Part shown: one piece after another, positions 5,286-54,640 of the stretch
How the letters are laid out: every line of letters begins with the position of its first letter
Position numbering within the stretch: position 1 is the first letter of the stretch
NCBI GenBank assembly: GCA_000004695.1
Contig: CM000150.2
Span: 3,072,001-3,136,000 of the forward strand
Direction: 5' to 3'
Origin: Dictyostelium discoideum
Lineage: Eukaryota
DNA: 64,000 bases
The notes under the pieces: model-generated
Database searches by the model: none
Told to the model about the DNA's origin: nothing
What the model saw: only the letters and a program-made list of their open reading frames with translations
Translations under genes and position numbers: made by a program

Positions 5286-6470
5286 TTATAATTTTGAAAT
5301 TGGTTTATATGAACAATTTTCAATAATTGTTGCAGTTGCTTGACCAAAACCAATACACATTGTTTGAAGTGCGTATTTTTTATTTGATCTTTCTAATTCA
5401 TTTACCATTTTAGTCATAAGAATACAACCAGTTGCACCTAATGGATGACCATGTGCGATTGCACCACCATTTGGATTAATTTTATCTAAATCAATATTTA
5501 ATTCCTTTTTCCAACCTAAAACTACAGATGCAAAGGCTTCATTAATTTCATATAGATCAATTTGATCTTTAGTGAGACCACTCTTTTCCAATGCTTTAAT
5601 AGTTGCTGGAATTGGACCTAATAGCATATATTCTGGATCAGAGCCAACTACTGTACAAGTTACAATACGAGCACGTGGTTTTAATCCTAATTTCTTAACT
5701 AAACGACCACTAACCAATAGGACAGCAGAAGCACCATCGCTGATTTGTGAAGCATTTGCAGCACTAATCTTACCATTTGGCTTGAATGGGGTTTTTAAAG
5801 TTGACATTTTCTTATAATCTACTGGAACACGAATACCTTCATCTTTATCAACAACTTTACCATCTTGAAGGGTGACTGGGATGATTTGGTCTTTGAAATA
5901 GCCTTTCTTTGTTGCGTTATCTGCTAATTCGTGAGATCTACCAGAGAATTTATCGATTTCATCTCTTGTTAAATTATATTTCTCTGCAATCATTTCAGAG
6001 GAAACACCTTGATGAAGTACTTTGAAATTAAAACCTTCTACAAATTTAGGATTATCTAATTGCCAATCACTGCCCATTGGTACTATACTCATCATTTCTA
6101 CACCACAGCCAATAACAATATCCATATCACCTGATCTAATTGCTTGCGAGCCAAAATGGATAGCTTGTTGACCTGATCCACACATTCTATTTAATTGAAC
6201 ACCTGGCACATTGATTGGTAATCCGGCTTTTAATGCTGCAAATCTTGCTATGTTTGCACCTTGTTCTCTTAATGGTGATACAACACCACAAATAACATCT
6301 TCAACTAATCCTCTATCAACATTTGGATTTCTTTTCATTAATTGGTCCAGTGTATATGATAATAAATCAATTGGTTGTATTGAATGTAATGATCCATTAC
6401 TATATCCTCTACCAATTGGTGTACGAATACAATCAACTATATAAACTTCATTTGTTGTTGTTGTAGTCAT
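5286..6470 (-). CDS. Thiolase (acetyl-CoA acetyltransferase / 3-ketoacyl-CoA thiolase) with C-terminal -SKL (PTS1-like)
   Basis: Uninterrupted 394-aa ORF, ATG at 6470..6468. Thiolase signatures are NRMCGSGQQAI (active-site Cys), NGGAIAHGHPLGATG and CIGFGQATATII. The C-terminus is ...YKPISKL. Confidence 0.9.
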   Translation of the reverse strand: MTTTTTNEVYIVDCIRTPIGRGYSNGSLHSIQPIDLLSYTLDQLMKRNPNVDRGLVEDVICGVVSPLREQGANIARFAALKAGLPINVPGVQLNRMCGSGQQAIHFGSQAIRSGDMDIVIGCGVEMMSIVPMGSDWQLDNPKFVEGFNFKVLHQGVSSEMIAEKYNLTRDEIDKFSGRSHELADNATKKGYFKDQIIPVTLQDGKVVDKDEGIRVPVDYKKMSTLKTPFKPNGKISAANASQISDGASAVLLVSGRLVKKLGLKPRARIVTCTVVGSDPEYMLLGPIPATIKALEKSGLTKDQIDLYEINEAFASVVLGWKKELNIDLDKINPNGGAIAHGHPLGATGCILMTKMVNELERSNKKYALQTMCIGFGQATATIIENCSYKPISKL

Positions 6471-6894: not shown

Positions 6895-9800
6895 TTAATT
6901 CTTATTTTGATATTTATAGTTATTTAAAGTTAAAGAAAATAAAACTACTGGTAGTGAAGATAATAATTCAGATAAACCGGCCAAAGCAGGTGGAATTGTA
7001 AACCATGGATATAAAATACCACTTGAAAGAGGAATACCTAAAAGATTATAGATGAATGCCCAAAATAAATTAAATTTAATAGTTTTGAAAATTGATTTTG
7101 ATAAATCAAAACAAACCAAAATATCATTTAAATCATTTTTTAGTAATATAACACTTGATGATTCAATTGCAATATCTGTACCATTTGAAATTGAAATACC
7201 AATATCTGATTGAACCAAAGCTAATGAATCATTTACACCATCACCAACCATTACAACAATTGATTTATTTTTACCATTATTACTATTATTATCACTGCCA
7301 CTACAACCAACACTGGCACCATTAAAACCATCACCACCATCAGTACCACAACAATTATCTTCAGTTGTATTATAACCTTGTAATTTTCTAACGATATTGA
7401 ATTTATCAATTGGTAATGCTGAACCAATAATATTACCCGAATTAATATTTAATTGTTCACCAATTGATTGAGTTGCTCTTTTATTATCACCACTAACTAA
7501 CCAAACATCAATACCATTATTTTTTAATTTTGAAATTACTTTTTTTGCTTCTGGTTTCAATTTATCAGATAATGAAACTAATCCAATAATTTTCTCATTC
7601 ATTGATACTAAAATTACTGTTTTCCCTTGATTCTCTAATTTATCAATATCATTTTGAATCACTGAATTAATTATAACTTCCTTTGATTGACTTTTTGATA
7701 GTTGTGATGATGACGAAGAGCAACAACCTTTCTTACAATCACTACCATTGCTAATAGAAGTTGGTGGTGGTGCTGGACAACAACCTTTCTTACAATCACT
7801 GCTATTGCTAATAGAAGTTGGTGGTGGTGGTGGTAATGATGGACAACAACCTTTCTTACAATCACTACCATTGCCAGTAGAAATTGGTGGTGCTGCTGCT
7901 GCTGGACAACAACCTTTCTTACATTCACTGCCATTGCTAATAGAAGTTGGTGGTGGTGGTGGTGGTGGTAATGATAGACAACAACCTTTCTTACAATCAT
8001 CAGATTTTGAATTAATTAATTGACTTGATTGTAATGGTGATTGACAAGAATCAATTTTATTATTATTATTTGATAATTGTTCAACAATAAAAGATTGATT
8101 ACCAACCATAATTTTATTATTATTAATAAAAGAAATAATACCTTTTCCAGGATGAACTTCACTATTTGTTGGTTCTTGTAGTGCTTTTTCTAAAGTGAAT
8201 TGTTGAATTGCATATTGTTTAATTGATTTACCAATTAAATGTTCACTTGATAATTCAGCGGATGCAGTATAGAAAAAGAATTGTTTTGGTGAAATTGATT
8301 GATCATATATTGAGAAATGATTTATATCGATTTCACCAGTTGTTAAAGTACCAGTTTTATCAAATATGACCTTGTTGACTTTACTTGCCAATTCAATTAC
8401 TTGACCACCACCTTTGAATAGAATACCAAATTTCTTTGCACCAATTGCACTACCAACCATAATTGATGTTGGCGTTGCTAATGAGATCGCACAAGGACAT
8501 GAAATTACCATTAATGACATACTAATTTTAATTGCAAAAGTGAATGCTGATTGATTATCAGTGGCAATGACAACATTATAGTGAATTAAACAAAACCAAA
8601 CTATAAATGTAATTATTGAGCATATTAATATGGTTGGTACGAAATAAGATGCAACTAAATCTGCATAGTTTTGAAAGTTTGGTTTAATTGATTGACTCTC
8701 TTCAACCAATTTAATAATATTTGATAATGCTGTATCATTTGAATGTTTTGTAACTTTAATAATTAAACAACCCTTTTGATTCATTGTTCCACCAAAAACG
8801 TAATCATCAATTCTCTTATAGACATGATTTGCTTCACCAGTTATAATTGATTCATCAATATATCCACCATTACCTCTAATTATAATACCATCAGTTGGAA
8901 TCTTTGTAAATGGTAATACTTTTAAAATATCACCTTTTTCAATTAACTCTTTTTCAATCATTATTTCTTGTTCACTACCTACATCTTTATTATTATTATT
9001 TGATAATAGAATTGCATTTGATGAATCTAATTGTTTCATTTTTTCGACTAATACATTTGATGCTTTTGATTTTGCTAAGTGTTCTAAATATCTACCAAGA
9101 ATAATTAATGTTAAAAGTATAACACAAGTTTCAAAGAAAATTGGACCATTATAATTCAATGAGGAGAAATGATTTAAAATTAAATTAATTAGAGAATAAA
9201 AGTAAGCAATCGTACTACTTGTCATAACTAATAAATCCATACTACATTTTCTTGCATAAATCAAAGTTTTCCAAGCTGAAATATACAATGGTTTACCACA
9301 ATAAAATTGAATTGGTGTTGCAAATGATAATAATAATAAAATTGACATTGTAATACCTTTACCAATTTCAAATTCCATAACTTCTTTAACTGATTTAATA
9401 TTTGGAAAAATATATGAAATTAAAATTGTTGGTATAAATAATAAAATACAAAACATTAATAATGATTTTAAGTTATTATTATTATTATCTTTTGAATTAT
9501 TATTCTTATTATTGGAATTATTATTATTATTTAATTTTGTATTTGGTTGAATTTTAAAATTATCACCAAATATAAGTTGGATTTCTTTTAATAGATTACG
9601 TGGTCCAATTTTATCAGTATCATAAACAATTGTAAGTTTATCATTAACCGAACCAGATTCTTCGATAGCATCTAAAACACCATCAATTGATAATTTAATA
9701 TTTTCAATTAATTGATCATTTAATATTGTTGTTAATGTTGAAGTTGGTGATAATGATATGATTTCAATTGTAATTTGATTTGAATTTGATGATTGACCAT

Positions 9801-11055
9801 GAACTTGTTTACCAACAAATCCAATATTTTCAATAACTTGTAAGATTTGTTGTGGTTGTATAATCATTGGTGAATAATTAATCTTACATTTACCAGTGAA
9901 TAAACTAGTTTGAATTTCATTTACACCTGATAATGATTTCATTTTTTGTTCTAATGTAGTTACACAATCTGCACATGTCATACCTGAAATCATTAAATGT
10001 AATTCAACTTTTTCTAATGATTTTGATAATGTTGATGATTGAGATGATTTTATACCTGTTGAATTTTTAAAATTATTTGTTGTTGTTATTGGTAATAATT
10101 CAATTGATACATTATTATTTGTGGATAATCCTTTATTATCCCTTTCTTCTTGTTGTTCAATATCCACCTTATCTTCATTCAATTCACTATAGCCAACTTT
10201 AAATCCAAATGTTCCACAAGTTTTAGAAAACATTGTTGCAAAGATACGTTTCTTTCTTTGTTGATCACTATTGTAATCATTGTTATTGTCATCTGATGAT
10301 GAGGATGAACGCATAAAACTAAAGTTTGGTACTCCTACACTATAAGTTAAACAACAAACTTGTTTACAACAATCAACTTTACAGCAATGGCCTGTTACAC
10401 AAATGTTGCAACAGTATGTTTTGGTTGATTCTACTTGTTGTTTTGGTTGTTCAGTTGGACAACATCCCTTTTTACAACCAATATCATTGGTTTCAGTTGT
10501 TTTTGATGATGATGAGCAACATCCTTTTTTGCAACTACCTTTATCATCCTTGGTGATCATTTTTTCATCATCGGATGGAGTTGGACAACAACCTTTCTTA
10601 CAATTGTCATTGGATGTAGTTGTTGTAGTTGTTGTAGTTGTTGTTGTTACCACTGGTGAAGAAATGGTATAATCTTTTTGAAAGTTTGGCTCCATAATGA
10701 TGGCACTGTTTAAACTATCCATATCCAATGAAACAATTGACCCAACATTAGAATTTGATTTGTAATTTTTAGGAACACCATCATCATCATCTTCTTCTTC
10801 ATCCTCGTCTTTGTCCCTATCTTCATCATTGTTTGTTAATAATGATTTCTTTTCACCACAACATCCCTTTTCGCATTGTTTTTTTGTTTGTAATGTTGGT
10901 GGTGGTGATGGTGGTGTGATGAAAATTATATCATCTTGGTTATCATCTAAAACTACTTTTGAGTTATTATAACTATTGGTGAAGATAACTTGATTAAATA
11001 ATGGGATACCTTCATCATAATCATAATTATCATCTTCTCCTTTAAAGTCTCCCAT
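6895..11055 (-). CDS. P1B-type heavy-metal (copper)-transporting P-type ATPase with one HMA domain and multiple CxxGCC Cys-rich repeats
   Basis: Continuous ORF. The probable true start is MGDFKGEDD (ATG at 11055..11053; the upstream part of the ORF is poly-Lys from poly-A). HMA motif GMTCADCV (about 9965-9990). TM6 CPC (ISCPCAISLATP, about 8490). DKTGTLT (about 8345-8370). SEHLIG (SEHP-like N-domain motif). GDGVNDSLAL (about 7235-7250). N-terminal CEKGCC/CKKGCC x4 and an internal tandem CKKGCC-Pro-rich insert x5. Confidence 0.9.
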   Translation of the reverse strand: MGDFKGEDDNYDYDEGIPLFNQVIFTNSYNNSKVVLDDNQDDIIFITPPSPPPTLQTKKQCEKGCCGEKKSLLTNNDEDRDKDEDEEEDDDDGVPKNYKSNSNVGSIVSLDMDSLNSAIIMEPNFQKDYTISSPVVTTTTTTTTTTTSNDNCKKGCCPTPSDDEKMITKDDKGSCKKGCCSSSSKTTETNDIGCKKGCCPTEQPKQQVESTKTYCCNICVTGHCCKVDCCKQVCCLTYSVGVPNFSFMRSSSSSDDNNNDYNSDQQRKKRIFATMFSKTCGTFGFKVGYSELNEDKVDIEQQEERDNKGLSTNNNVSIELLPITTTNNFKNSTGIKSSQSSTLSKSLEKVELHLMISGMTCADCVTTLEQKMKSLSGVNEIQTSLFTGKCKINYSPMIIQPQQILQVIENIGFVGKQVHGQSSNSNQITIEIISLSPTSTLTTILNDQLIENIKLSIDGVLDAIEESGSVNDKLTIVYDTDKIGPRNLLKEIQLIFGDNFKIQPNTKLNNNNNSNNKNNNSKDNNNNNLKSLLMFCILLFIPTILISYIFPNIKSVKEVMEFEIGKGITMSILLLLSFATPIQFYCGKPLYISAWKTLIYARKCSMDLLVMTSSTIAYFYSLINLILNHFSSLNYNGPIFFETCVILLTLIILGRYLEHLAKSKASNVLVEKMKQLDSSNAILLSNNNNKDVGSEQEIMIEKELIEKGDILKVLPFTKIPTDGIIIRGNGGYIDESIITGEANHVYKRIDDYVFGGTMNQKGCLIIKVTKHSNDTALSNIIKLVEESQSIKPNFQNYADLVASYFVPTILICSIITFIVWFCLIHYNVVIATDNQSAFTFAIKISMSLMVISCPCAISLATPTSIMVGSAIGAKKFGILFKGGGQVIELASKVNKVIFDKTGTLTTGEIDINHFSIYDQSISPKQFFFYTASAELSSEHLIGKSIKQYAIQQFTLEKALQEPTNSEVHPGKGIISFINNNKIMVGNQSFIVEQLSNNNNKIDSCQSPLQSSQLINSKSDDCKKGCCLSLPPPPPPPTSISNGSECKKGCCPAAAAPPISTGNGSDCKKGCCPSLPPPPPTSISNSSDCKKGCCPAPPPTSISNGSDCKKGCCSSSSSQLSKSQSKEVIINSVIQNDIDKLENQGKTVILVSMNEKIIGLVSLSDKLKPEAKKVISKLKNNGIDVWLVSGDNKRATQSIGEQLNINSGNIIGSALPIDKFNIVRKLQGYNTTEDNCCGTDGGDGFNGASVGCSGSDNNSNNGKNKSIVVMVGDGVNDSLALVQSDIGISISNGTDIAIESSSVILLKNDLNDILVCFDLSKSIFKTIKFNLFWAFIYNLLGIPLSSGILYPWFTIPPALAGLSELLSSLPVVLFSLTLNNYKYQNKN
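7724..7995. repeat. Tandem coding repeat, 5 units of 57-72 bp (each encodes D/E-CKKGCC-P/A-rich-TSISNGS) within the ATPase CDS
   Basis: Repeated block caacaacctttcttacaatcactgccattgctaatagaagttggtggtgg... seen 5 times on the + strand. It translates on the minus strand to the CKKGCC...PPPP...TSISNGSD units. Confidence 0.85.
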
Positions 11056-11467
11056 TTTTTTTTTTTTTTTTTTTCTATTTCTATAAAAAAAAAAAAGTAT
11101 ACTTTTTTCTTTTTCTTTTTCTTTCTTTTTTTTTTTTTTTTTTCTTTTTTTTTTTAACACAGAACACTGATTATTATGGAGTCGATTTCTTTAATAATAA
11201 AAAAAAAAATAATAATAAAAAAAAAAAAGAAATTTTTAATCAAAAAATCTGAATTTTCCAAAAAAAAAAAAAATAAAATTTTTATGCGTTTATATTTAGT
11301 TTTTATTTTTAGTTGTGCCACGTTGGGAATTGCTTCTTTTTGGTGGTTATTTAATTATTTAAAAAAAAAAAAAAAAAAAAAAAACAATATTACAAATATA
11401 AAAGAATAATTGAAGTTATATTATAAAATAAATAGATATTAAATATCAAAAAAAAAAAAACCTAAAT

Positions 11468-11521
<54 letters not shown>

Positions 11522-11993
11522 TAAAATTATTAAATTCTGATTAGAAATAGAATTTTAATTTTTTTTGTTTTATTTTATTTATTTGTGAAATGTCAAGAAA
11601 AAAAAATAGATAAAATAAAAAAAATAAAAAAAGATCAAACCAAATCTTGGATTTAAACCCTGATAGTATTCATGTCACTGTCAGTTGTATAAATCAGTAT
11701 GATGCATCCATTGTTTCATATCTTTTACAACAAATGTGGTTATGTTATGGCCGTACAATATAAAAACAATATCAAAAAGTTGGAAACCATCTGAGAATTC
11801 AGAGTTCTAAGAAAGTGAAATGGTGGTAATTTAAAAAAAAAGAATTTAATTCCAGAATTAATTTAGGATTTAAAATTAAATTAAAGATGTAAAAACTTAT
11901 AAAAAAGATATTTTTTAAAAAATCTTTATTTTTATTGTTTTTTTTTTTTTTAAAATTGTAAGATATTTTTTTTTTTTTTTTTTTTTATTAATA

Positions 11994-13319
11994 TTAAAGT
12001 TTTGGAGAAGTTTTTTTATTATTATAAGAAATTGAACCAATAATCATTTCATCATTAACACCCCATGAATTTAAATCATTATAATTGGCACTACCATATG
12101 AACCCAATGATTCTAATAATGATTTTGTATTTTTAGAAACACCTAAACCTTTATCAATTTTAAATAACATTAAAAAATCATTAGTTTTTAATTGGCAATA
12201 TCTTTTACATGATAAAAGATTTGAGTTATTATTAACTTTACTACACCATTCATAAAATGGCATTTCTTTACAACCAAACTGTTTTTTTAATGTTGATTCG
12301 AATAGAGAATCAAATCTTTGCATTTCACCATTAATATTATAAATTGAAGTTAATTTTGATAATTGTGAATTTGAGGAATTCCAACATTTTTCATTTAGAA
12401 TTACATTCATAATATTTTTAGAAGCCCAAGTAATTGGAGAAACCAATACATTAATATCAAGTGTTGGATAGAAACCAATTTCATGACTTGACAAAAACAA
12501 TGTTTGAAATAAATCATGAGCACCAATACTTGTGTATGGATTAACGAATAAGACTGGTGATCTAATAATCATGGCAGGTATATTAAACTTATTGGAGGCA
12601 TTCATCAATAGATACTCTGATACGATTTTACTTTGAATATAACCACATGATTCCTTTTCAAGATTATCAATTAATGGTAATTGAACTTGTTCATTAAATT
12701 CTTCACCTTGTTTTAGCGTATGATTATTGAATACTGAAAATGAAGAAATAAATACCATTTTAATTGGTGGTTGAACACTAATTGAGAGTTTAATCATTTC
12801 TCTAATACCATTGACATTTATGGTTTTCATTTTTTCATAATTTGATTCCAAATTAATATTGGCGGCAGAGCTTATAATTAAATTTACATCATTGGCCAAA
12901 TCTGCATAGTCGAATATTGAAATCCCAAATTTTGGTTTTCTTAAATCCCCACCGACAACTTCAATCTTTAACAATTGATTTGGTGTGAGTTGATCATACA
13001 ATTTATGTTGTTTTAAATTATTTAAAATATCATCAACTGGGTTACCCAACTTCTTTTTATTTCTTAATAAACAATATACAATTGTACAATTTGGTAATTT
13101 TAATAAATAATAAAGTAAGTATGCACCAAGGAATCCAGTTGAACCAGTTAAAAACACTCTTTTTTCATCACCATCATAACTTTTATTTGGATTTTTGGTT
13201 TGATCACTTTTTAATGGTTTAAATGATGAATCCAAATTCATTTCATTTTTCCAATATTCAATTCTATCATATTTAATTGTTGCTGATGATGTAATTGTAT
13301 TAATTATATTATTATCCAT
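11994..13319 (-). CDS. Stand-alone NAD(P)-binding thioester-reductase/fatty-acyl-reductase-like protein; paralogue of the C-terminal R domain of the PKS at 26695..36214
   Basis: 441-aa ORF. Rossmann motif VFLTGSTGFLGAYLL. YIQSKIVSEYLL matches the PKS C-terminal [12 protein letters not shown]. Overall the domain is collinear with the PKS R domain ([14 protein letters not shown] ... ). Ends -PKL. Confidence 0.7.
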   Translation of the reverse strand: MDNNIINTITSSATIKYDRIEYWKNEMNLDSSFKPLKSDQTKNPNKSYDGDEKRVFLTGSTGFLGAYLLYYLLKLPNCTIVYCLLRNKKKLGNPVDDILNNLKQHKLYDQLTPNQLLKIEVVGGDLRKPKFGISIFDYADLANDVNLIISSAANINLESNYEKMKTINVNGIREMIKLSISVQPPIKMVFISSFSVFNNHTLKQGEEFNEQVQLPLIDNLEKESCGYIQSKIVSEYLLMNASNKFNIPAMIIRSPVLFVNPYTSIGAHDLFQTLFLSSHEIGFYPTLDINVLVSPITWASKNIMNVILNEKCWNSSNSQLSKLTSIYNINGEMQRFDSLFESTLKKQFGCKEMPFYEWCSKVNNNSNLLSCKRYCQLKTNDFLMLFKIDKGLGVSKNTKSLLESLGSYGSANYNDLNSWGVNDEMIIGSISYNNKKTSPKL

Positions 13320-14278
13320 ATTTTTTGGTTTTTTTTTTTGTTTGTTTTGGTTTTTTTTTTTTTGGTTTTGTAAAAGTTTAAAATAAAAAGATTTTTTAAT
13401 TTTAAATAATTTTTTTAAAATAAAAAAAAAAAAAAAAACAAAAAAAATAAAAAAATAAAAAAATAAAAATAATAAAAAAAAGATATTTTTGAAAAAGTTT
13501 TGTTTGTTTTTTTTTGTTAAATGACACGTGGCTATTAAAAAAAAAAAAAAAAAAATATTAATTGGATCACAAGATTTTAATGTGATTGAACTTTTTAATT
13601 AATTATTAATTTAAATGAAAGTGCAATTTAACTACTCATTAAAAAAAAAAAAAAAATTTCAAAGATTAAATAATTAAAAAAGATTTAAAAAGATTAAAAA
13701 AATAAAAAAAATTAAAATAATTAAAAAAATTAAAAAAATAAAATAAACTGTTTTCTGTTTTGGGGTTTGGTTTTAAACAGATTTAAAAAAATTTTAAAAA
13801 TTAATTTTTATTCAACCCCCAAAACTTTACCAATAGGAGCCCAATTTTAATTATTTTTTTAATCATATTAATTACTGTAGCTACATTTTTTTATCAATTT
13901 TTTTTTTTTTTATTTTAATTTTATTGTTAAATTAAAACAAGTTATATAAAAATAAAAAATGGGGAACGAGATTCAAATTCAAATCGACAATTATTCATCT
14001 ATAACCTTTAACATTTTAGTTTTTTTTTTTTTTTTTTTTTTTAATTAAATAATTTTTTCTTTATCTTTTGACCAAGCATCAAATTTAACGTTAAATTAAT
14101 AAAAAAAAAAAAAATAAAAATAATACTTTTAAATTTATTAATTGTTGTTATTTTATTTTATATCGTTTATTATTAATGTGAATGAATTAAATAGAGAAAA
14201 TTAAAATAAATATATTGATCAATTTGTTTCCTTCTATTTATTGTGTACTTCATAATATTAAAATAAAAAATCAATCAG

Positions 14279-14323
<45 letters not shown>

Positions 14324-14341
14324 TTCAATAAAAATAAAAAA

Positions 14342-14375
<34 letters not shown>

Positions 14376-14819
14376 AATCAAAAAAAAGAAATCGGTGAGA
14401 TAAATAAATTTCTAATTTAACTGAAATTTCAAAAAAAAAAATAAAAAAAATATAACAATTTGATTTGTTTTTTCATTTAATTTTATTATATTTTATTTTA
14501 TTTTATTTCATTTATTTTTTATTTTTTATTTTTATTTCTATTTTACCATATTTTATTTTTATTTCTATTTTACCATATTTTATTTTTACTTATAGATAAT
14601 CCAAGGTATTAAAAAAGTAATAAAAAAGAAAAATAAAAATAAAAAAAAAAAGTAAAACAAAAATAAAATAAAAAAACAATTATAACCTTTGGATTAAATT
14701 AAAAAAAAAAAAAATTTTATTTGAAAAAAAAAAATAAAAAAAAAAAAAATAAAAATTACATGATATCATGTAATTTTTCTATTGGAATTCCCTTTTATTC
14801 ATATAAAGATCTGAAAAAG

Positions 14820-14863
<44 letters not shown>

Positions 14864-15128
14864 TTTTAATTTTTTTTATTTTTATTTTTATTTTTATTTT
14901 TTTTTTTTTTTTTAATTCAATCCAACATAAATGTAATAATAGTTTCATTTTTAGTCAGGATACCACTGCATTTAAAAAATAATATTGAAATAAAAATAAA
15001 AATAAAAATAAAAAAAATAAAAGATCTATCCATGTTTGGCTATAATTATATATTTATATAATATAAAAATAAATAAAAAATAAAAATAAATAAATAATAA
15101 TAATAACTATAATAACAGTAATAATAAA

Positions 15129-17970
15129 ATGTATAATTTTTTTGATAGAATCAAAGCGCCTCTAGTAAGTATATTTTTTTTATATTATATAAATATCTTT
15201 TTTTTTTTTTTTTTTTATTTTTTTTTTTTTTCATCACCTATTTTTTTTTTTTTACTAATTATTTATTAATATTTTTAAAAATAAAAAAAAGTCGGAATAT
15301 AAAAGGTATGCAGCGAATCATAAGAAAGATGATGATTTTACAGATATTGAGGATAAAATAAATTGTGGACAATTTCCGAATGAATATGGTAGTAATGCAA
15401 TCGAGTTACCAAATTCACCTACATATAATAATAATAATAATAATAATAATGGTTCACCAAACGTTTTAAAACAATCTCAATATATAAGTTTTATAAATCC
15501 ATTATCATTACCATCATCATTGATACCACCACCACCAAATTATACATCACAACAAAATCTAAGTGATGTAATGAGTAATAATGGTGGTGGTAGTGGTGTT
15601 GGTGTTAGTAGTAGTAATAATAATTTAAATTTAAGAAATACGACAGTATCAATGACATCACCTAGAAATGTACCAATAGTTACATCACCTCGAAATATTA
15701 CAATCTCACCTACTGCAAATATAATTTCTGTACCTGCTGAAATTTCACAATGTAATGATGTACCGAATTCAATTGGTTCACCACCAATTGAAGTTGAGCA
15801 ATCACATTTAGTACCAAATAGCGAATTAAATAACAATAACAATAATAATAATAATAATAATGAAAATGTTGGTGAAGAAGATTTTCAATCATTAATGGAT
15901 CAATCGAATAAATTACAAATTCAAATGCAAATGTTAATGCAAAAAATGCAACAAATGCAACAATTGAAACAACAATTAAATTTAAAACATTCATCAGCCA
16001 CTAATATATATGTACCACCAAGACAAGTTAGAGTGTCTGGTCAAAAACCACCAATTAGACAAAGACAATTTCAAATGAGACCTCCACAACAATCTCAACA
16101 ACAATTTTTCGATTTACCAATTCAAGAGCATGAACATGATATACCCCATTCAAAAAGACAAGAATTTGAAGATTCATTAAGAAACACTACAACTGCAACA
16201 ACAAATTTTAATGAAATTGAAATGCAAAATTTAAACCAAACTTCAAGTAGATTTGGTAATAGTAATACATTTTATAATCCAAATTTTGTGAACCATAGTA
16301 GTGGCAGTTTAGATGAGTCAACCATAAATGTTGATTCACAATATCAACAACATGAAAAAGATAAAGATAATTCAAGTCAATTATCAAAAACTACAATGAC
16401 CACATTACCAATAGTTTCTCCACCACAAGTAAAAGGTGATGTGATTTTGAATATTGATGATGAAAATGGTAAAACCATTATTAGTACAACAACAGTAACA
16501 CCAACAACAAGTCCTCATGGTTTAGTTGGTGATGATTCTCCAACGACAACAACAATAAAAGGTGGAGAAAATGGTGGTTCACCATCAGTTGATGGTGGTG
16601 GTGGTGCTATAATTGATGGTAGATCAACAATTAAGATGGTAATACCAAAGATAAAATCAAAATTTAATAAAGAGAAAATGCAAAGATTTAAAAAAGGTGT
16701 ATTTCAAATATTGGCACCACCAACTCAAAATTTACCAGTTCATATAGTTGATCAAGAGTTGACAGAAAGTAAGGTGGTACCATTTTTAATGGAACTTGGA
16801 CGTGCTTTGACAATGTCTGGAGTGCCATCGAATAGATTAGAATTTGAGTTAACTTTAATTAGTACTACTTTTGGTATAGATGGTCATTTCTTTACAACAC
16901 CAACTGGTATTTTCTTTTCATTTGGTTCACCTCATTCAATTCTTTCACCATATACTCATTTCCTTAGAATCAATTCCACCGATTACAATATGGAACGTAT
17001 GGTTAGATTGGAGAGATTGGCCGATAAGGTTATCTATGGTGAAGTTAGTTGTGTTGAAGCATTGGAGAAGTTAAGAAAGATTCTAGCAAAGAAGCCATTG
17101 TACAATATCTATCTCACAACTTTTAGTTATATAATGTCATCATTCACCATTGCCTTCTTTTTCGATGTTGGCTGGGTCGAGGTTGGAGCTTGTTCAATCA
17201 TTGGATTCTATGTTGGCCTTTTATGTCTACTCTCGAGTAAAGTGTCTTTGGTTGGCAGAGTTTTGGAGGCCTTGTCATCTTGTGGTGGAGCAATCATTGC
17301 ATCGTTGTTCAATTGCTACATTTCGCCTATCCCCATATTTACAGTGACCCTGGGCGGCATCATATCGTTGTTGCCTGGTTTAGGCTTGACATTGGCCGTA
17401 GCGGAGATTTCAACTAGAAATCTGGTTAGTGGCACCTCAAGATTGGTTGGTGTTTTCTCTTGTTTATTGCAATTAACTTTTGGTATTGCGTTGGGTACGA
17501 AATTCTCAGAGGTAGTCATGCCAGTAAGAGACGAAGTTTTACCTGTAACTTTCCCTGATTGGGTAATGTTTATTGTAATTCCGTTCGCTGCCATTACATT
17601 TGGTGTTCAATTAAAAGTTCATTGGAGAGAATTTTGGGTTATCATCATCGCTAGTTACATTGGTGTAACCGTTGGTAATTGGGGTAGTAAATATTTTGGT
17701 GATGTTGGTGCTTTCTTTGGTTCAGCTGCAATTTGTGCTCTAGGTAACCTTTACTCAAGATTAACAAATATTTCTGCGGTCGTTCCAATTATGGCGGGTA
17801 TTATTTTACTGGTTCCTGGTAGTATGGGTGTTAAAGGTATCGTTTCAATCAGTGATGGTGATATTTCCGGAGGAATTGATTTCATTGGTGGTATGTTTAT
17901 GACTGCTGCAAGTTTAACAATGGGTTTATTGGTTGCAAATTTAATTATTGCTCCTCCAAAATCGTTCTAA
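15129..17970 (+). CDS. Polytopic membrane protein, putative ThrE/DUF1212-DUF3815-family (threonine/serine-exporter-like), with a long low-complexity N-terminal region (2 exons: 15129..15164, 15292..17970)
   Basis: Mini first exon ATG TAT AAT TTT TTT GAT AGA ATC AAA GCG CCT CTA followed by GTAAGT at 15165. The acceptor is ..aaaaaaaAG at 15290-15291 and is in frame with the long ORF. Before the first TM, the C-terminal half has a ThrE-like block (VVPFLMELGRALTMSGVPSNRLEFELTLISTTFGIDGHFFTTPTGIFFSFG). About 10 hydrophobic helices follow. Family assignment is from memory of motif patterns only. Confidence 0.45.
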
Positions 17971-26694: not shown

Positions 26695-29600
26695 ATGATT
26701 GAATCAACTTCGAATAAATCTAGAGATGTTGCTGTTATAGGTATGGATAGTCCTGATTTAGTATTTTTTTTTTTTTTTTAGTTTTTTTTATTTTTTTTAT
26801 TCAATTCTGAAATTTCATTTTTTCATTTTTCTATTTTTTTATTTTTTTATTTTTTATTTTAGGTATTGGTTTACGTTTACCAGGTGGATCGAATACACCA
26901 TTAGAATTATGGAATAATTTAATTAAAGGTATAGATGGTATTGTTGAAACTAAGGAGCGTTGGAGTGATACTTTCTCAGAGATGGGAGAGGTTTCAAGTA
27001 AATATGCAGGTTTAATAGATTTCGATCAATGGATGTCGTTTGACCCTTTACATTTCGCTATTAACCCATCAGATGCCAAAGAAATTGACCCTCAACAAAA
27101 AATTTTATTAAAAACTACTTGGGAAGCTTTCGAAGATGCACAAATTGATCCATTATCACTAAGAGGTAGTGATACTTCTGTATATGTCGGTGCATCTTCA
27201 ATGGATTACGCAAGTATCAATACTGATCCAAATAAACAACCAATTAATTGTTTTAATGTTAATCTAAGTGGTGTATCAAATCGTATTTCATATTGTTATG
27301 ATTTAAGGTAATTAAACATGGGGTGTTAATGATGAAATGATTATTGGTTCAATTTCTAATAATAATAAAAAAACATCTTCAAAACTTTAATATATATAAC
27401 TTTAATAAAAAAAAAAAAATTCTAATATATTATTTTATTTTAAGAGGTACTTCATTAACTATTGATACAGCATGTTCAAGCTCATTGAATGCTGTTCATT
27501 TAGGTTATGAGTCAATTGTTAATGGAAAGTCAGATTACTCAATAGTTGGTGGTGTTAATTTTATAATTAGTAAGTAAATATATATTTATTTAAAATTATT
27601 TAATATTTAATATTTAATATTCAAAAATTTGTAAGATTATTAATTAAATAATTTTATTATTTTAGATCCACAACAATCAAGAGCATTCAAATATGCAATG
27701 GTTACAAGTAAAACTGGTAAATGCAAAGCATTTGATGAATCAGCTGATGGTTTTGTTCGTTCAGAGGGGGCAGTAGTTTTAATTTTAAAGAGTTTATCAA
27801 AATCTATTGAAGATGGTAATCAAATTTATTCAATAATTAAGGGTAGTAGTTCAAATGTTGATGGTACTTTAAATAAAACAAATTATTTTGCACCTTCAAA
27901 AGTTTCACAATCAAATAATATGCAAAAGGCATTCGATTCTACAAATGGTGAATTAACACCAAATGATATTAGTTTCTTTGAACTTCATGGTACAGGTATA
28001 GTATATTTTTTTATAATAATTATTATTATTTCTTTAGTTGTTTTTGTGGTGGTGGTGGTACACATATATAAATTGATTTCTAATATTTATTTATTTATTG
28101 TTTTATTTTATAAAAAAAACAAAAAAGGTACACAAATTGGTGATCCAATTGAAGTTGAAGCAGTATCAACCTTATTTAAAGATATTAAAACTAAAGAATC
28201 ACCATTATTAATTGGTTCAATTAAATCAAATATTGGTCATTTAGAACCAGCAAGTGGAGTTGCATCATTAGCAAAAGTTTGTTTAATGTTAAAAAATAGA
28301 GAATTTGTAAAGAATATTCATTTTGAAACACCAAATCCAAATATTAAATTTGATGAATGGAAAGTTAAAGTTTGTACACAGAATACACCATTTCCAACTA
28401 TTCGTGGAAAACCAATTTCAATTGCAATTAATAGTTTTGGTATTACAGGTTCAAATGCTTGTCTATTATTATCAGAATATTTAAAAACCAATATAACTAC
28501 AACAAATGATCAATTAGAACCATCGACAACAAGTTATTTAATACCATTAAGTTCAAGTTCAAAAAAATCATTAGAGCTTTACAAGAATGAATTAACAAAT
28601 AATATTGAAACATTTTCAAAATCAATTGAATTTAAAGATTTTATAAGTTATCATATAAATTCAAAGGCAATAAAATTAGCATCAAGATCAGTTTTAATGG
28701 TAAAGGATTGGGATGAATTAAAATCAAGTTTAAATTTAAATGAACCATTAATTTATTCAAGTAAAGGTAATAAATCAGGAAATATAATGAAAGATAATAA
28801 TAAGAATCCAATATTAGTTTTTGTATTTTGTGGTATTGGTGGACAATGGAATCAAATGGGTAAACAGCTTTATGAAACCAGTAAAGTGTTTAAACAATCA
28901 ATAGATGAAATCGATCAAATCTTTAATAGACTATTTGGTTATTCAATTTTAAAGAAATTAAGATCAATTAGTGATGATGATTCAAAAGGAATTAATGAAT
29001 TTATAACCTCTCAACCATCAATATTCATGCTTCAAGTATCATTGTTTGAATTTTATAAGAGTTGGGGAATTAATCCATCGATTAATGTTGGTCATAGTTT
29101 TGGTGAAATTTCATCTGCTTGTTGTTCAGGAATGCTTGATTTGGAAACTGCATGTTTCATAGTTTATAAAAGATCAATTATTCAAACTAAAACCATTGGT
29201 AGTGGTGGAATGTTAGTCATTGGTTTAAGTGAAGATGAATATAAAAAACAATATCAATCTCAATATCCATTGATAGAAATTAGTTGTTTTAATTCACCAT
29301 CATCAATTGTAATTAGTGGTAGTGAACTGGATTTAACCACAATTACAAGTTCACTTAAAGAAAAGAATATTTTCACCTATTTATTAGGCTCACCTGCAGC
29401 ACTTCATTCATCAAAACAAAAGGTTATCAAAGATGATATTTTAACTCAACTTAAAGATATTAAATTCAAACAACCAACAATTAAAACCTTTTCAACTGTC
29501 ACAACAAATTTATTTGATAATTCAACAACACCATTCGATAGTAATTATATTTTTTCAAATATTAGAAAACCAGTATCATTTGAAAAAACAATTAAAAACA

Positions 29601-32600
29601 TCTTTAATCATATTGAAACTAATGATCTTGGAAGTAATGTAATCTTTTTAGAATTATCACCACTTCCAACATTAACTAATTATATCAAAGAAATGATACC
29701 ACAAAATTCAAATTACTTTTACATTGATGATGAATCAATTACAATTTTGACATCATTAAATAAAAAAAAATCAATTGATGAATTACAAGAAATTAAATCA
29801 ACAATTTCACAAATTTATTGTTCTGGTTATAATGTTAACTTTAAATCACAATTAACAACAACAACAACAACAACTTTTGGTAATTTAATAATTGATAGTA
29901 ATAAAATTGTTAAAGGTTTTACGTCTTATTATTTACCACGTTATCAATGGGATGAATCAAATTATTTTAAAGTTGGTAGAATTTCAAAACAAATTTCACA
30001 AGGTCCAACAGCGACTCAATTAGGTTATCGTAATGATGTATCACCATTTATGTCATACACATCATACATCGATATTAAAGAGGAACCATTTAAATTTCTA
30101 AAGTGTCATCAATCACGTGGTAGAAATTTATTCCCAGGAAATGCATACTTGGAGAATGTTTTAAAAGTATTTCCAGATCAAGATTTAACATTTCATTTAA
30201 TTGAATATAGATCACCATTGATATTAAAAGAAGGTATTAAACATATTATCTCTACAAATATTTATCCCAGTGCAAAGAATGAATATAGAGTTACCTTTCA
30301 TTATAAAGATAGTTTCGATAAATGGATTTTAGGTTGTTCAGCTAGATTCTCTGTATTAAAACATAATAGTGATTTAGAGAATCAAAAGATTGATGTAGAA
30401 TCATTAAAGGCTAAATGTAATTGGACAACAATTAAAAGGAAGGAATTTTATGAAGTATTAAAAACAAACACATCATTGGCACTCACTGGTCAATTTCAAT
30501 GTATTGAAGAAGCATACTATGGTTATAATTGCTGTTTAGCTAAAATATCAATGAATGAAACTTTAACAAAACTATCACAATACGATAATGAATTATTTTT
30601 AAATGCTTGTACAATCGATGGTGGTTTCCAACTATTAGGTTTATTTAGAGATAATCCAGATACTTTTGTTATGGATAGAGTTGAACTACTTAGATTCTAT
30701 GCTTCAAATATTCCAAAATCTTCAAAGTTTAGAGAAAATTATCCATTCATTTATACCTATACCGAATTTATTAGTCAAATTGGTAATTCAGTATATGCAA
30801 ATATTAATACATTCTTACCTGATGGTACATTATTATTTAATACTCCTGTTGTTTGTTACTCTTCAATTTCAACTGATATAAAAAATCAATTGTCAATTGA
30901 AAATCCAAATCATCAATTATACTCTACAGTTCTTCAATCACTAGAATCACCATTGTCAGTCACTACCCAAAATGCAATCATTGATGAGAAATTATTCTTA
31001 TCATTTTTACCAACCCCAGTTGCAAATATTAGAAAAGCATTTACAACCTGTATCTTTTCAAATATAAAGAAAATTTATCAATCAATTACACCAGCTAAAA
31101 TTAATACTTCAACTGTTGATTCCCTAATCGATAGTTATTTTAAAATTTGTGAAACTGATAATATTGAAAAAAGAAAATTAGGTGAAACATTATTTAATGC
31201 TTTAAAATTAAATTATTCAATTATTGAATATAGTTCTCAAGCTAAATTAATTAAATTATTATCAACAAATCAAATTGAAATAATGAATAAAATTACAACC
31301 CATTTATTAAATGAAACAAAACCAACAACAAACACTACTGAAACCACACCTGTTAGTAGTAGTCAAAAATTACCTGAACAAATTCAATTAATTGAAAATA
31401 TTATTACAAAATCAGTTTTACCATTAGTTAATGAAAAGATTGTATTTAGAATTTTAGAAATTTCATCAGGTATCGGTCAATTATCAAAGATTATAGTTAC
31501 AAGATTGAATGAGTTATTACAACAAAATCCTTTAGCAGAAATTGATATTGAATTAACATTTACCGATAGAGAAGATATTACATTAATTAAAGAGAAATTA
31601 ACAACATTACTTTATTCAACATCATCGACAGCCGATATAAATAGTAAAGATCTTTCATCACGTAAAACTAGTTTAATTTTTACTCAATTGGATTTAAATG
31701 ATAAAGATTTAATTTCATCAAAAACCATTTATCCATCCTATTATGATATTATAGTTTTAAATGGTTTGGATGGTATTAAAGATTTAAATCAATCAATTGA
31801 AACTATTTATCAAATTCTTAATCCAAATGGTTATTTCATAATGATTGATACTTTATTTAAAGCTAATAAAAGTGATTTAAAAAACTATGAATTATATCAA
31901 CAATGGTTATCTTTCAATTATTTTGATTCAACTAAAGATTTAGATTCTTGGAAAAAGTTATTAACTCAAGATTTTAAATTAATTAATTTCACTGCTACTT
32001 CAAGTCAACCATGGGTAATTTTATGTCAAAAACCTAGATTTTTCGAAACAGTTTCAACTGAGAATCCAATCTCTACAACTCTTAGTTGCTATGATCAAGT
32101 TATTATTTTCGGTACAATTGATAATATCAATGAATCAAAAGCACTATCAAAATTAATGGATGTTAATGATAGAGGTACCGATATTTATTGTATAAAGACT
32201 TTGGATGAATTTGAAACTCATGTCAAAGAGACACCATTAACTGATGAATCGGTTATAGTTTATGTGAATACAATCAATCAAGTATTCATTTCATTCATTT
32301 CCTATTCATTAGAATATATCAAAATCAATCAACATTTATTAAGAACCAATTGTAACGCCAAACATGTATTGTTAACTAGAAGTGCATTCATTGAAACTAC
32401 CAATACATTGGTAAGTGCAACAGTTGGAGCTTTTAGATACTTTTGTGAATTCTCTCAATTGGATTTATATTTAATGGATTTTGATGATTCAATCTATTTA
32501 AAATCTATGCAATTCATAAATGTAACCCATGAAATGACAAATCCAAATAAACACTACCAAAGGGAATTCATTTTTAGAGGTGATAAAGTTTACTATGAAA

Positions 32601-35600
32601 GAGTTACTCAAGAGACAAACTTAAAATTAAAATTAAAATCAACATCATACATATCCGAGCCAACTCAACTATATGCAAAATTAGGTCAAAACTTACAATA
32701 TCAATTGAAACCATTTGAAAATAAAATTCCTGAAGGATTCATTGAAGTTAAAGTATTGGCAAGTGGTATCAATTTCAAAGATAATTTAGTTTATCGCCGT
32801 TTGGTACCAAATGAAGCTGTGAACCATACTGGTAATTCAAATGATCCAGAATTTGGTTATGAATGTTCTGGTATTGTATCAAGAGTAGGCGATGGTGTTA
32901 CAAAATTCAAAGTTGGTGATGAAGTGGTTGGTTTAGGTTTCAATTGTACAGGTTCATTTGTAACTTTAGAACAATTTAGATTTGTATTAAAACCAAAGAA
33001 TCTTACTCATGTTGAAGCAGCTTCAATTCCAGTGGTTTATTTAACATCATATTATAGTTTATTCGTTGCTGGTTATCTTAGTATTGAAAAGAAAGAATCT
33101 GTACTAATTCATGGTGGAACAGGTGGTATTGGTTTAGCATGTATTAATCTTTTAAAAGCAAAAGGTTTCAAAGGTTATTTATTCGTTACTGTTGGTTCAA
33201 AAGAAAAAGAAAATTTCCTTCGTGTTACCTATGGTAACTTTATCACTGGTATCTATTCAAGTCAAAATACAGATTACCTTTTAGAAATCAAGAAAAAGAT
33301 ACAACAACTCACTGGAAATAATTTAATTTTTAAACAATTTGGTGTTGCTAAAATGGGTATTGATTTAATTATAAATACATTATCAAATGAATTTATGGAT
33401 GCAAATTTCAATTCATTATGTCAAGGTGGTAGAATTATTGATCTTTCTGTGACTCACATGAATAGTCAAGATACTACTGATTTTAGAAAATTCCGTTATT
33501 GTATCAGTTATTCAAGTGTTGAATTACTTTTAAATGGTTTCGAAAGAAATAAATTAATACTTCAAGAGGTTATGGATATGTTTGTAAATGAAAATTTAGC
33601 ATTACTACCAATTAAAGAATATTCAGTTAAAGATATTAAAGAAGCTATTGAATTCATCGCTGAAAGAAAACATATTGGTAAAATTGTTGTTAATCATGAA
33701 AACTATGATTTAATTTCACAAACTCTTGTTAGCAATGATAATGAATTCTATAAAGACTTTTTAATTCCAAAAGCAAACTATAGAATAAGTGCAGATTGTA
33801 ATTTGGGTAAAACCGTTTTATTAACTGGTCAACTTGGTCTTAGTTTATCAATTATCAAATGGATTATTGCTTTTAATAATTTAGAACAACCAGTTGAAAA
33901 TATATTAGTACTATCATTATCACCTATCAAATATGAATTGGAACATATGATTTGTTATTGTAAACATGTTAATAATCAAATTAAAATAATATTTAAACAA
34001 GTGGATATCTCTGATATGTGTGCATTGGATGATGCAATTGGTGAAATTTATAAAGAAAATGAAAATTTACCATTGGTATCTTCAATTTTCCATAATGCAT
34101 TTGCACCATCGGAATGTGACGCATTGGATATTGATGAAGATCATTTGAGGATATCTCATTCAGCCAAAACTATGGGTATGATAAATTTGAATTCCCTTTC
34201 AACTGGTATTTGGTCAGAGTCTATAAAGAACTTTGTATTGTCATCATCTATAACAAGTATTCTTGGAAGTCAACGTCAATGTGGTTATATTAGTGCAAAT
34301 TGTATCATTGATGCAGTCTCAAGATTAAGAGCATCAGAAGGTTTACCATGTACTTCAATTAACTGGGGTGTACTTGGTACTGGTTTCGTTTCAAGAAATG
34401 AAAGTGTTTCAAAGTTATTTGAATATCAAGGTTTCATTCCAATCTCTATGGATATGTTAATTGGTACATTGGATTTATTCTTACAAAATTCTGGTAAATT
34501 AAATAACAAAATAGTTGCCTCATTTAATTATAATAATGTTAGTGCAGCATTTAGAAATCATCATCTATCCTATAAATTAAATTACTTTTTAAATCCAGTC
34601 TATTCAAAAGGTTCAACTTTTGATGATAATGAATTATCAATTAGAGATGATATTTTAGAGAAATTCTCTGAATATCTATCAACTGAAAAATCAAAATTAA
34701 GTTTAGATATCAAATTAATAGATTATGGTAGTAGTTCAATTATGCTTGTTGAATTAAAGAATTATTTAGATAAAACTTATACACCAAACATTTTATCGAT
34801 TGCACAACTTCAAAATGTAACAATCAATCAATTAATTCAAGCAGTAATTCAAGCAGTTTCAAAATTAAAAAAACCAACAACAAATCAACAATCTCAGCAA
34901 CCAATTATTTCAAACATTAAATGGGAGGATGAGATTGCATTAGATCCAACCATTAAACCAACTCAACAAATAATTGATACCTATAAAAATGAAATGACTC
35001 AACTTTACAAAAATAATAATAATAAAACAAGTTTGGGAGGTTTACAAGTACTATTAACTGGTCCATGTACATTTTCAGGTACTCATATACTTTCAAATCT
35101 TTTATTATCTTCAAAAACAAAAGTGATTCATTGTTTATTACCAATGGAAACTCCAGAGCAAGTAATGTGTACAATCATTGATAATTTCAAAGCTCAAGGT
35201 TTATATGATCAATTGAATTTAGCAAATGTATTATCAAAGATTAAACCAATTGCTGCAGATTTTACAAGACCAATATTTGGATTGGATACTGATGATTATA
35301 TTGAACTTTCAAAAAAGATTGATATAGTCATTAATGCAGCATCAAATACAACCAAACATTATTGTGCTCATATTTCCTATGAAGATACAAATAAAGAGTA
35401 TTTACATGGTGTCTCACATTTACTTAGATTTGCATCAAGTGAAAAGCTAAAGAGGGTCGTTCAAATCTCAACATTGGGACGTTATTCTGATTTACAAAGA
35501 AATTCTTTAGACGAATACTATTTCCCAGAGGTCGATTTCTCATTCATTTCCGATCAAAATCAGTTAGTATCAGGTTATATTCAATCAAAGATTGTGGCAG

Positions 35601-36214
35601 AGTATCATCTTAAACAAGCTTCAAATCGTGGTATTCCATGTTTAATAGTTCGTACTCCATTTACCTTCCCTGGAAATAATGGTATTGGTAGAGAAGCTGA
35701 TTTCACTCAACTACTTCTCCAAAGTTGTTATACATTAAATTGTTATCCAACTGAATCACATATTCAACTCTACACTGCACCTGTAACTTGGTATGCAAAG
35801 AATATTACATTAATGGCTGTTGGTAGTGATATTTCACAAGATGGTTGTTGGGATACAATCAACACATCTCCAATTGAAAACCTTTTATGTTTTAATCTTT
35901 TCGGAGGTGGCTTTGATTTTGGTGATTTATTGGTTGATATTTCAAAAGATTTATCTTGGAAAGAAGTCCCATTCGAAACTTTGGTTAAAAAAGCTGCTGT
36001 AAATGAAACTGAGTGTTGTAAAAGATTGGCTTCATTCGTTTTAAAGAAAAAAGGTGATTTCTTAAAAAATTTAGGTGTTATCCCTGGTAATTTCACCGTC
36101 AATGAAAATCTCAAAAATTATTTAACCTTAAATAACTCATTTGATGGTTGGTTAGTTACAAAACAATTAGTCTATAATCATTTATCTTATGTTTTTAAAA
36201 AGAAAGTTTTTTAA
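26695..36214 (+). CDS. Fully reducing type I polyketide synthase, KS-AT-DH-cMT-ER-KR-ACP-R (5 exons: 26695..26740, 26863..27307, 27445..27569, 27666..27995, 28128..36214)
   Basis: Exon junctions restore canonical KS sequence: DVAVI|G|IGLRLPGG (donor GTATGG 26741, acceptor 26861-62); ...CYDLR|[18 protein letters not shown] (donor GTAATT 27308, acceptor 27443-44); ...GGVNFII|NPQQSRAF (donor GTAAGT 27570, acceptor 27664-65); ...ELHGTG|[11 protein letters not shown] (donor GTATAG 27996, acceptor 28126-27). AT GHSFGE about 29100. [13 protein letters not shown] about 30110. c[11 protein letters not shown] about 31470. [12 protein letters not shown] about 33110. [11 protein letters not shown] about 33820. 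[11 protein letters not shown] about 34730. R domain [12 protein letters not shown] about 35060 ... [10 protein letters not shown]. Confidence 0.9.

Positions 36215-50124: not shown

Positions 50125-50183
<59 letters not shown>

Positions 50184-54603: not shown

Positions 54604-54640
<37 letters not shown>

Follow-up and report, generated by a model that had tools for sequence, protein, structure and literature searches.

In the 64,000-nucleotide stretch of the Dictyostelium discoideum AX4 genome analysed here (contig CM000150.2, positions 3,072,001 to 3,136,000; hereafter the window), which is very AT-rich with a GC content of about 0.14–0.35, a single-exon gene on the minus strand (11994–13319) encodes a stand-alone protein of 441 amino acids that is homologous to the terminal reductase (R or TR) domains of polyketide synthases (PKSs). 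We propose that this protein, hereafter free R, is a peroxisomal, NADPH-dependent acyl-CoA thioester reductase of the TR type and a recent derivative of a Pks21-like PKS; taken as a whole, this proposal has in our judgement an even chance of being right. It is carried by the predicted fold of the protein, its motifs, its ancestry, the purifying selection on its gene and the conservation of its C-terminal targeting tripeptide. The open reading frame (ORF) is complete, with an ATG and a stop codon, and encodes exactly the AX4 protein XP_646097.1 (DDB_G0269592, UniProt Q55DN4), which is labelled “hypothetical protein” under XP_646097.1 and “Thioester reductase (TE) domain-containing protein” under Q55DN4.

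In the Pfam search, free R matched PF07993 (NAD_binding_4) with an E-value of 6.8e-44 and 150.4 bits against a cutoff of 20.1, and other families of extended short-chain dehydrogenases/reductases (SDRs), i.e., Epimerase and 3Beta_HSD, gave only weak matches. The top NCBIfam model was TIGR01746 (6.9e-46, 157 bits), and the runners-up were the R-domain portions of Lys2, MxcG, and CAR. The closest solved structure by sequence was the R domain of MxaA (4.4e-21), with which the TGxTGFLG motif, the S-T position, and GYxQSK align. An AlphaFold2 model built from a 17-sequence alignment reached a pTM of 0.81 and a mean pLDDT of 73.7, with 80–95 in the core. When this model was compared with the PDB using Foldseek, the R domain of MxaA again ranked first (E 1.8e-21, TM 0.81), followed by the TR domain of a Streptomyces coelicolor PKS, CAR R domains, and the R domain of Mycobacterium tuberculosis (Mtb) Nrp. 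The top 26 PDB matches were all R or TR domains, with alignments of about 400–450 columns including gaps, and the DPW protein of the fatty acyl-CoA reductase (FAR) type and the sugar-nucleotide SDRs ranked beneath them. No PF03015 “Sterile” domain was found in free R at E ≤ 0.01, and the C-terminal half aligned with R-domain subdomains. Domain content and fold ranking rule out a FAR, an epimerase/dehydratase, or a Lys2 identity. Judged from sequence and model together, free R is a full-length thioester-reductase (R/TR) domain of the extended SDR type.

The residues expected of an active enzyme of this type are retained. In the alignment, G59, G65, S192, Y227, and K231 are invariant and T58, T61, G62, and R86 nearly so, and free R keeps the full set of TGSTGFLG, CLLR, GDL, S192, Y227, and K231. 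We take the Arg of CLLR to have the 2′-phosphate of NADPH as its ligand, as R-domain structures in general would suggest. Because all of the NADPH-binding and catalytic motifs are present, free R has, as far as its sequence indicates, everything that a working NADPH-dependent R domain needs.

The window also contains a PKS gene on the plus strand, and an earlier note on this DNA had read free R as a paralogue of the terminal reductase of that PKS. The start codon of the PKS (26695) is followed by short introns, and the main body of the protein, with KS (partly in upstream exons), AT, ER, KR, ACP, and NAD_binding_4 domains identified with Pfam, is encoded by the ORF at 27698–36214. The distance from the 5′ end of the free R gene (13319) to this start codon is 13.4 kb; the two genes are divergently oriented, and several unrelated genes separate them. 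In a BLASTP alignment, residues 23–436 of free R were collinear with residues 2409–2835 of the PKS ORF (29% identity, E 5e-39), a similarity far above chance. Together with the PF07993 and fold matches, this bears out whole-length homology to PKS terminal R domains. Both proteins also contain GYIQSKIV[S/A]EY, as had been noted. The shared GxxGxxG motif, which had been claimed as well, did not stand, because free R has TGSTGFLG and the PKS has TGPCTFSG, in which the middle Gly is replaced by Thr.

The more specific claim, that free R is the paralogue of this neighbour's reductase, was not upheld either. An exhaustive HMMER search found 8453 relatives of free R, and the top non-orthologous matches were C-terminal TR domains of dictyostelid PKSs: those in a 1272-amino-acid protein of D. 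cf. discoideum (47% identity, 345 bits), in a 2973-amino-acid PKS of D. firmibasis (46%), and in Pks21 (DDB_G0282029; 43%, 295 bits), with PKSs of D. purpureum (38%) and Acytostelium (34%) also matched. The TR domain of the neighbouring PKS reached only 29% and 139 bits. When the PKS R segment by itself served as query, a word-indexed search gave no match; this was a sensitivity artefact, and a query with the full PKS and HMMER both succeeded. In a neighbour-joining tree of 35 TR-domain sequences (300 bootstraps), free R clustered with the Pks21-like domains and a subfamily related to them with 99% support, whereas the neighbour’s TR and its D. purpureum orthologue formed a separate subfamily with 100% support. 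Because of these scores and this grouping, free R is, by sequence, a paralogue of PKS reductases generally and no copy of the adjacent one. For scale, a TR domain is carried by 19 of the 40 PKSs of D. discoideum (PMC12828403).

The terminal domain of the neighbouring PKS is itself atypical. Besides its altered glycine motif, it has CLLP in place of CLxR (with loss of the Arg), AADF in place of GDL, and a four-residue KHYC insertion, although the S/T-Y-K residues are retained. Its orthologues out to D. purpureum (P0176, P0177, and P0178) keep TGPCTF[S/M]G, CL[L/M]P, AADF, and KHYC. This domain may therefore bind NADPH abnormally, if at all.

Orthologues of free R, with 83–92% identity, were found in D. 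cf. discoideum, D. firmibasis, D. citrinum, and D. dimigraforme only, the next matches being at about 30%. Homology and HMMER searches detected no orthologue beyond these four group-4 species, and D. purpureum and remoter dictyostelids yielded only PKS-embedded TR domains. The pairwise dN/dS ratio in four species was 0.12–0.18, with a dS of 0.2–0.64 (about 0.5 between species), and all of the ORFs were intact. These sequence comparisons indicate that the gene is under purifying selection, and that it is young and confined to the D. discoideum complex.

The homology to PKSs starts at the ACP–R linker, EYWKNEMNLD, near the start of the free R ORF. A tblastn search with four PKSs detected no KS, AT, KR, or ACP relics besides the R ORF in 11000–15600, and the 2.3 kb upstream of the ORF contained no ACP or KR relics. 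Therefore, we consider free R to be a stand-alone homologue and not a domain of a synthase, and the absence of relics in this search rules out that it arose in place from a decaying complete PKS. The simplest history, as the sequences suggest, is a partial duplication: the TR-coding 3′ end alone of a Pks21-like PKS would have been duplicated in an ancestor of the D. discoideum complex, exactly from the ACP–R linker, and the copy would then have been extended at its C-terminus by a short stretch with SKL at its end (PKL in AX4) and retained under selection.

This extension is the basis for the predicted localisation. Free R ends in ...SISYNNKKTS-[S/P]-KL, whereas the TR domain of Pks21 ends in ...NHINYIFKN and that of the neighbouring PKS in ...YVFKKKVF; the tail of free R is thus an extension of 6–7 residues, found in no full-length PKS TR. 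The end reported in the earlier note, PKL (within -SPKL), is present in AX4 and in two “cf. discoideum” assemblies. D. firmibasis, D. dimigraforme, both D. citrinum assemblies, and two further D. discoideum isolates (P0020 and P0021, which differ from AX4 by 8–9 amino acids) have SKL instead, and position 439 is a within-species S/P polymorphism. The sequence KKTS[S/P]KL is conserved in all nine orthologous sequences. The codons of the tripeptide vary by species (Ser TCC/TCA, Lys AAA/AAG, and Leu CTT/TTA) and the 3′ flanks are unalignable, so the tripeptide itself is under selection. The last 12 residues include two Lys and no Asp or Glu, and the last four have low pLDDT values and are probably flexible. 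The N-terminus is acidic, and no hydrophobic segment points to another destination. Among 290 collected TR and PKS proteins, ends resembling a peroxisomal targeting signal of type 1 (PTS1) were found in the free R orthologues, one D. purpureum protein, and three unrelated matches.

The SKL end falls inside the strict consensus [S/A/C]-[K/R/H]-[L/M], and the PKL of AX4 falls outside it. In Dictyostelium, SKL suffices to direct import, peroxisomes are routinely marked with RFP-SKL, and both FARAT and an alkyl-DHAP reductase depend on SKL ends (PMC7375469, PMC13256971). In plants, PKL> is an established though weak PTS1 that a neutral upstream context does not abolish (PMC9542071) and a basic one strengthens (PMC9542071, PMC3355810); many peroxisomal proteins of plants are on record with it (PMC3355810), and it is annotated as a PTS1 in diplonemids (PMC9512073). 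The earlier reading of this C-terminus as PTS1-like is very probably right, given the SKL ends, the synonymous codon changes, and the working SKL signal in Dictyostelium. We rate peroxisomal targeting of free R as likely, because the orthologues in three other species have SKL, the tripeptide is selected, the context is basic, and no rival signal was seen; for the -PKL allele of AX4, we infer the same destination.

The one D. purpureum protein with such an end, DICPUDRAFT_148651 (GL870972.1; locus L006, 10001–12600), is the only other PTS1-like case among about 115 dictyostelid PKS-type proteins collected, in which the full-length PKSs have no PTS1. Like free R, it is a truncated PKS derivative with an intact TR and a canonical PTS1 end (-SKSKL), but it has kept AT and ACP domains (AT-ACP-R, without KS, DH, ER, or KR) and is non-syntenic. 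Its gene model wrongly splices out the glycine-motif region IFLTGASGYLG; the DNA itself encodes this region, intact and in frame. The two proteins were sisters in 0 of the 300 bootstraps, and we rejected the D. purpureum protein as the ancestral form of free R; therefore, SKL was apparently added to truncated PKS derivatives twice, independently.

Other truncated PKS-derived proteins or fragments with a TR domain of the free R subfamily were also observed in various Dictyostelium assemblies (P0022, P0025, P0026, P0029, and P0031, with 1272, 1221, 659, 222, and 290 amino acids, respectively), a sign that PKS genes in this clade may often be duplicated in part or decay. A further protein, P0030 (eukprot gene1551-1963_t, 1745 amino acids), opens directly with an R domain (residues 8–403) that falls in the neighbour-PKS subfamily, and unrelated sequence follows; this is one more free or N-terminal R domain, unless the gene model is a fusion.

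On the proposed function, folded free R would enter the peroxisomal matrix along the PTS1/Pex5 route, where, having no carrier protein of its own, it would meet acyl-CoAs and not acyl-ACPs. As R domains recognise phosphopantetheine, the phosphopantetheine thioester of a free acyl-CoA could serve as its substrate and be reduced with NADPH to an aldehyde, and possibly on to an alcohol. It is the lack of its own carrier protein that makes free acyl-CoA the most likely substrate; the substrate class, the chain length, and a transfer of two or four electrons are, like the localisation, inferred. There is a precedent in CpFAS1-R, the R domain of the Cryptosporidium FAS1, which, when excised, reduces very-long-chain acyl-CoAs with NADPH, albeit slowly (PMC2995488). 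Like free R as proposed here, it acts on free acyl-CoA apart from its synthase; unlike free R, it is an engineered fragment without a targeting signal, and it is distant in sequence.

Several points weigh against this proposal. Docking on a carrier protein is the norm for R domains, and they can be poorly active on acyl-CoA: CpFAS1-R has a K50 of 0.91 mM and a kcat of about 4.6 per min (PMC2995488). The peroxisomal supply of fatty alcohol for the ether lipids of Dictyostelium has already been assigned to FARAT (PMC7375469). Since free R is limited to a few close species, it cannot serve a core function. AX4 itself has the weaker -PKL, the 157 bits against TIGR01746 are under the curated cutoff of 213, and model confidence is low in several surface segments (the termini and loops 198–221 and 387–417). 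The literature search found no paper that mentions DDB_G0269592 or Q55DN4.

FARAT, a FAR–DHAPAT fusion ending in -SKL, is nevertheless an informative comparison. It shares with free R, as do FARs, the NAD_binding_4 superfamily, and it resembles free R in its PTS1, its peroxisomal localisation as predicted for free R, and an analogous predicted acyl-CoA-to-alcohol chemistry; in contrast, free R has no Sterile domain, is PKS-derived, and is known from its sequence, whereas FARAT has been characterised experimentally. In fatA-null cells, about 13% of the ether lipid MDG is retained, which the authors tentatively credit to “one of the many polyketide synthases” (PMC7375469). Free R is a concrete candidate for the residual MDG-supplying activity in these cells. 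A broader and more speculative idea, which we hold only tentatively and think rather unlikely in its full form, is that dictyostelids repeatedly moved the reductive-release module of PKSs to peroxisomes (as R-SKL and as AT-ACP-R-SKL), thereby making a carrier-independent acyl-CoA reductase that acts as a FARAT-independent source of aldehyde or alcohol, or as a tailoring step for polyketide-acyl-CoAs; this could explain the residual MDG.

We weighed four other explanations of free R. The first is that it is a carrier-protein-dependent reductase serving another synthase, either a Pks21-like PKS or a peroxisomal carrier protein. Free R has retained the ACP–R linker and the complete C-terminal subdomain, and the AT-ACP-R-SKL protein of D. 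purpureum predicts carrier-protein chemistry in peroxisomes of the genus; however, the locus encodes no carrier protein, the full-length PKSs have no PTS1 ends, and the D. purpureum protein is not the sister of free R. We regard this explanation as unlikely. Some stand-alone reductases of nonribosomal peptide synthetase (NRPS) pathways act on aldehydes, and extended SDRs are functionally plastic. These facts, together with the weak Epimerase and 3Beta_HSD matches, would fit a protein with the same fold and other chemistry, i.e., an extended-SDR carbonyl reductase or a non-redox R*-type protein acting on a non-thioester peroxisomal metabolite. This seems quite unlikely to us, as thioester reductases account for every one of the top matches in sequence and in fold and, unlike the R* domains (the non-redox, Dieckmann cyclase type), free R has its Tyr227, its Lys231, and its glycine and other NADPH motifs intact.

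The earlier note had also suggested that free R could act in trans on PKS or fatty-acyl thioesters; fatty-acyl or other acyl thioesters are still our best guess. In the rival explanation built on the PKS, free R would be a release reductase for the neighbouring enzyme, whose own R domain has lost canonical NADPH-binding residues, and would provide the lacking redox chemistry in the cytosol or before import. The noncanonical TGPCTFSG and CLLP of the PKS TR, conserved to D. purpureum, would give such a partner a role, and the two genes lie 13 kb apart, an arrangement that D. cf. discoideum and D. citrinum preserve (locus tags 000708/000701 and 007272/007260), with the genes in the order R, ThrE-family gene, small genes, CfaA-family gene, PKS, and BEACH gene. 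However, the two genes are distributed differently among species: the PKS is present in D. purpureum (73% identity) and free R is not, while D. firmibasis and D. dimigraforme have free R and no PKS orthologue with >50% identity among their annotated proteins, and the free R gene of D. firmibasis sits among unrelated genes. Unrelated genes also intervene in the window. Because of this mismatch, the placement of the two in separate TR subfamilies, and compartments that are predicted to differ (a conserved PTS1 on free R and a PKS end of -KKKVF), a dedicated partnership is disfavoured, and we consider it improbable. Least probable of all is that free R is a by-product of evolution, a partial duplicate of recent origin that does little or nothing and has a fortuitous SKL-like end, as might be read from its very narrow taxonomic range, the many truncated PKS fragments in Dictyostelium genomes, and the S439P polymorphism within the tripeptide, because the low dN/dS and intact ORFs in four species, the retention of all catalytic residues, and a tripeptide held through synonymous changes speak against it.

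Among known systems, the Dictyostelium PKS TR domains, especially that of Pks21, are the most similar to free R, with 43–47% identity over the whole domain and the same ACP–R linker, C-terminal subdomain, motifs, and clade; they differ in that free R has no KS, AT, KR, or ACP and has the SKL/PKL extension. The R domain of MxaA (myxalamid PKS-NRPS; 4U7W/4W4T), the best sequence and fold match, shares the two-subdomain architecture, TGxxGxxG, and S/T-Y-K with free R. However, this and the other solved R domains compared (S. coelicolor PKS TR, 8V1X; CAR R, 5MSO; and Mtb Nrp R, 4DQV) are parts of bacterial megasynthases with tethered substrates and about 20–30% identity, whereas free R is eukaryotic, stand-alone, and organelle-tagged. 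The bacterial stand-alone “thioester reductase-like” SDRs of about 390–440 amino acids (P0046, P0053, and P0061) resemble free R in their single domain and similar length, as do P0008–P0012, named “thioester reductase-like protein” by JGI, in being single-domain proteins; the bacterial proteins have 24–33% identity to free R, which does not group with them but nests among the TR domains of dictyostelid PKSs. The enzyme type is well known; as far as the present searches go, no description exists of a TR that derives from a PKS, stands alone in nature, and bears a conserved peroxisomal tag.

If the proposed acyl-CoA reductase function is correct, a release domain of a megasynthase was turned into a soluble organelle-targeted enzyme in a very short evolutionary time, and a PKS-derived enzyme joins the Dictyostelium peroxisome. 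It would also provide a specific candidate for the FARAT-independent supply of ether-lipid precursors, and a small natural stand-alone TR that possibly accepts CoA thioesters, which is of interest for aldehyde and alcohol engineering. For annotation, “hypothetical protein” would become predicted peroxisomal thioester reductase, and the neighbouring PKS is flagged as having an atypical, possibly NADPH-independent terminal domain. The positions of the features discussed are summarized in Table 1.

Table 1. Positions in the window of free R, its motifs, and the other features discussed.
Feature	Position	Strand	Basis
Predicted free-standing thioester reductase (free R), complete single-exon coding sequence, 441 aa	11994..13319	-	ORF; XP_646097.1 match; PF07993; TIGR01746; dN/dS
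Rossmann nucleotide-binding motif TGSTGFLG, residues 58–65	13125..13148	-	Alignment; canonical
CLLR motif, residues 83–86	13062..13073	-	Arg nearly invariant in R domains
Ser192-Ser193, Ser/Thr position of SDR catalytic triad	12741..12746	-	S192 invariant; aligns with ST of MxaA
Catalytic YxxxK, Y227-I-Q-S-K231	12627..12641	-	Y227 and K231 invariant; aligns with GYAQSK of MxaA
C-terminal extension KKTSPKL, residues 435–441	11997..12017	-	Kept as KKTS[S/P]KL in orthologues
PTS1-like tripeptide PKL	11997..12005	-	End of free R protein
Multi-exon highly reducing PKS, KS-AT-...-ER-KR-ACP-R	26695..36214	+	Pfam; start codon and first introns located
Terminal R domain of neighbouring PKS, collinear with free R	34922..36211	+	BLASTP; PF07993 2e-30; TIGR01746 120 bits
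Atypical nucleotide-binding motif (TGPCTFSG) in PKS R domain	35051..35080	+	Kept in orthologues
HCLLPME (Arg to Pro) in PKS R domain	35129..35149	+	Kept in D. cf. discoideum, D. citrinum, and D. purpureum orthologues
77-nt copy of free R gene 3′ end inside PKS intron	27317..27393	+	Source 11991-12067, minus strand
Thiolase, Thiolase_N and Thiolase_C, ending in -SKL	5286..6470	-	Pfam; C-terminus read

An intron of the PKS gene contains an inverted copy of the last 24 codons, the stop codon, and the first 3′ bases of the free R gene, with three mismatches. The copy reads ...KKTSSKL*, its frame differs from that of the PKS exon, and the 9-nt microhomology ATGATTTAA lies a little upstream of both copies. 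Because the orthologous introns of D. citrinum and D. cf. discoideum do not have it, the copy is a recent insertion specific to D. discoideum, perhaps derived from an SKL allele and perhaps a templated repair patch, with no bearing on function. Being out of frame and missing in two relatives, it was rejected both as an ancient link between free R and the PKS and as an alternative PKS exon. In the same gene, a hydrophobic low-complexity stretch (...FYKKNKK; about 27998–28126, plus strand) splits the KS after ELHGTG in the 2838-amino-acid PKS ORF; it is almost certainly an in-frame unspliced intron, and the 2838-amino-acid ORF is then not the true protein. The ORF at 47127–55607 on the minus strand, considered as a second PKS, is a BEACH/WD40 protein without similarity to free R.

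The thiolase described in the earlier note as neighbouring free R does end in SKL (-ISKL), but it is not adjacent, as an ORF for a 1421-amino-acid copper-type P-type ATPase lies between the two. D. dimigraforme and D. cf. discoideum also have the free R gene, ATPase gene, and thiolase gene in this order, and D. firmibasis does not. Given this loss of synteny and the intervening ATPase, an operon-like link is not supported, and the thiolase is probably a peroxisomal neighbour with no demonstrable link to the free R gene. The ATPase (6895–11160, minus strand) has many Cys-rich C-K-K-G-C-C motifs, some at its N-terminus and others within an internal block of proline-rich repeats (...DCKKGCCPxxPPP...), and these repeats form an unusual, metal-binding-like architecture. 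Its ORF as called begins with GTG upstream of a poly-Lys stretch, and the true start is probably an internal ATG (MGDFKGEDD...).

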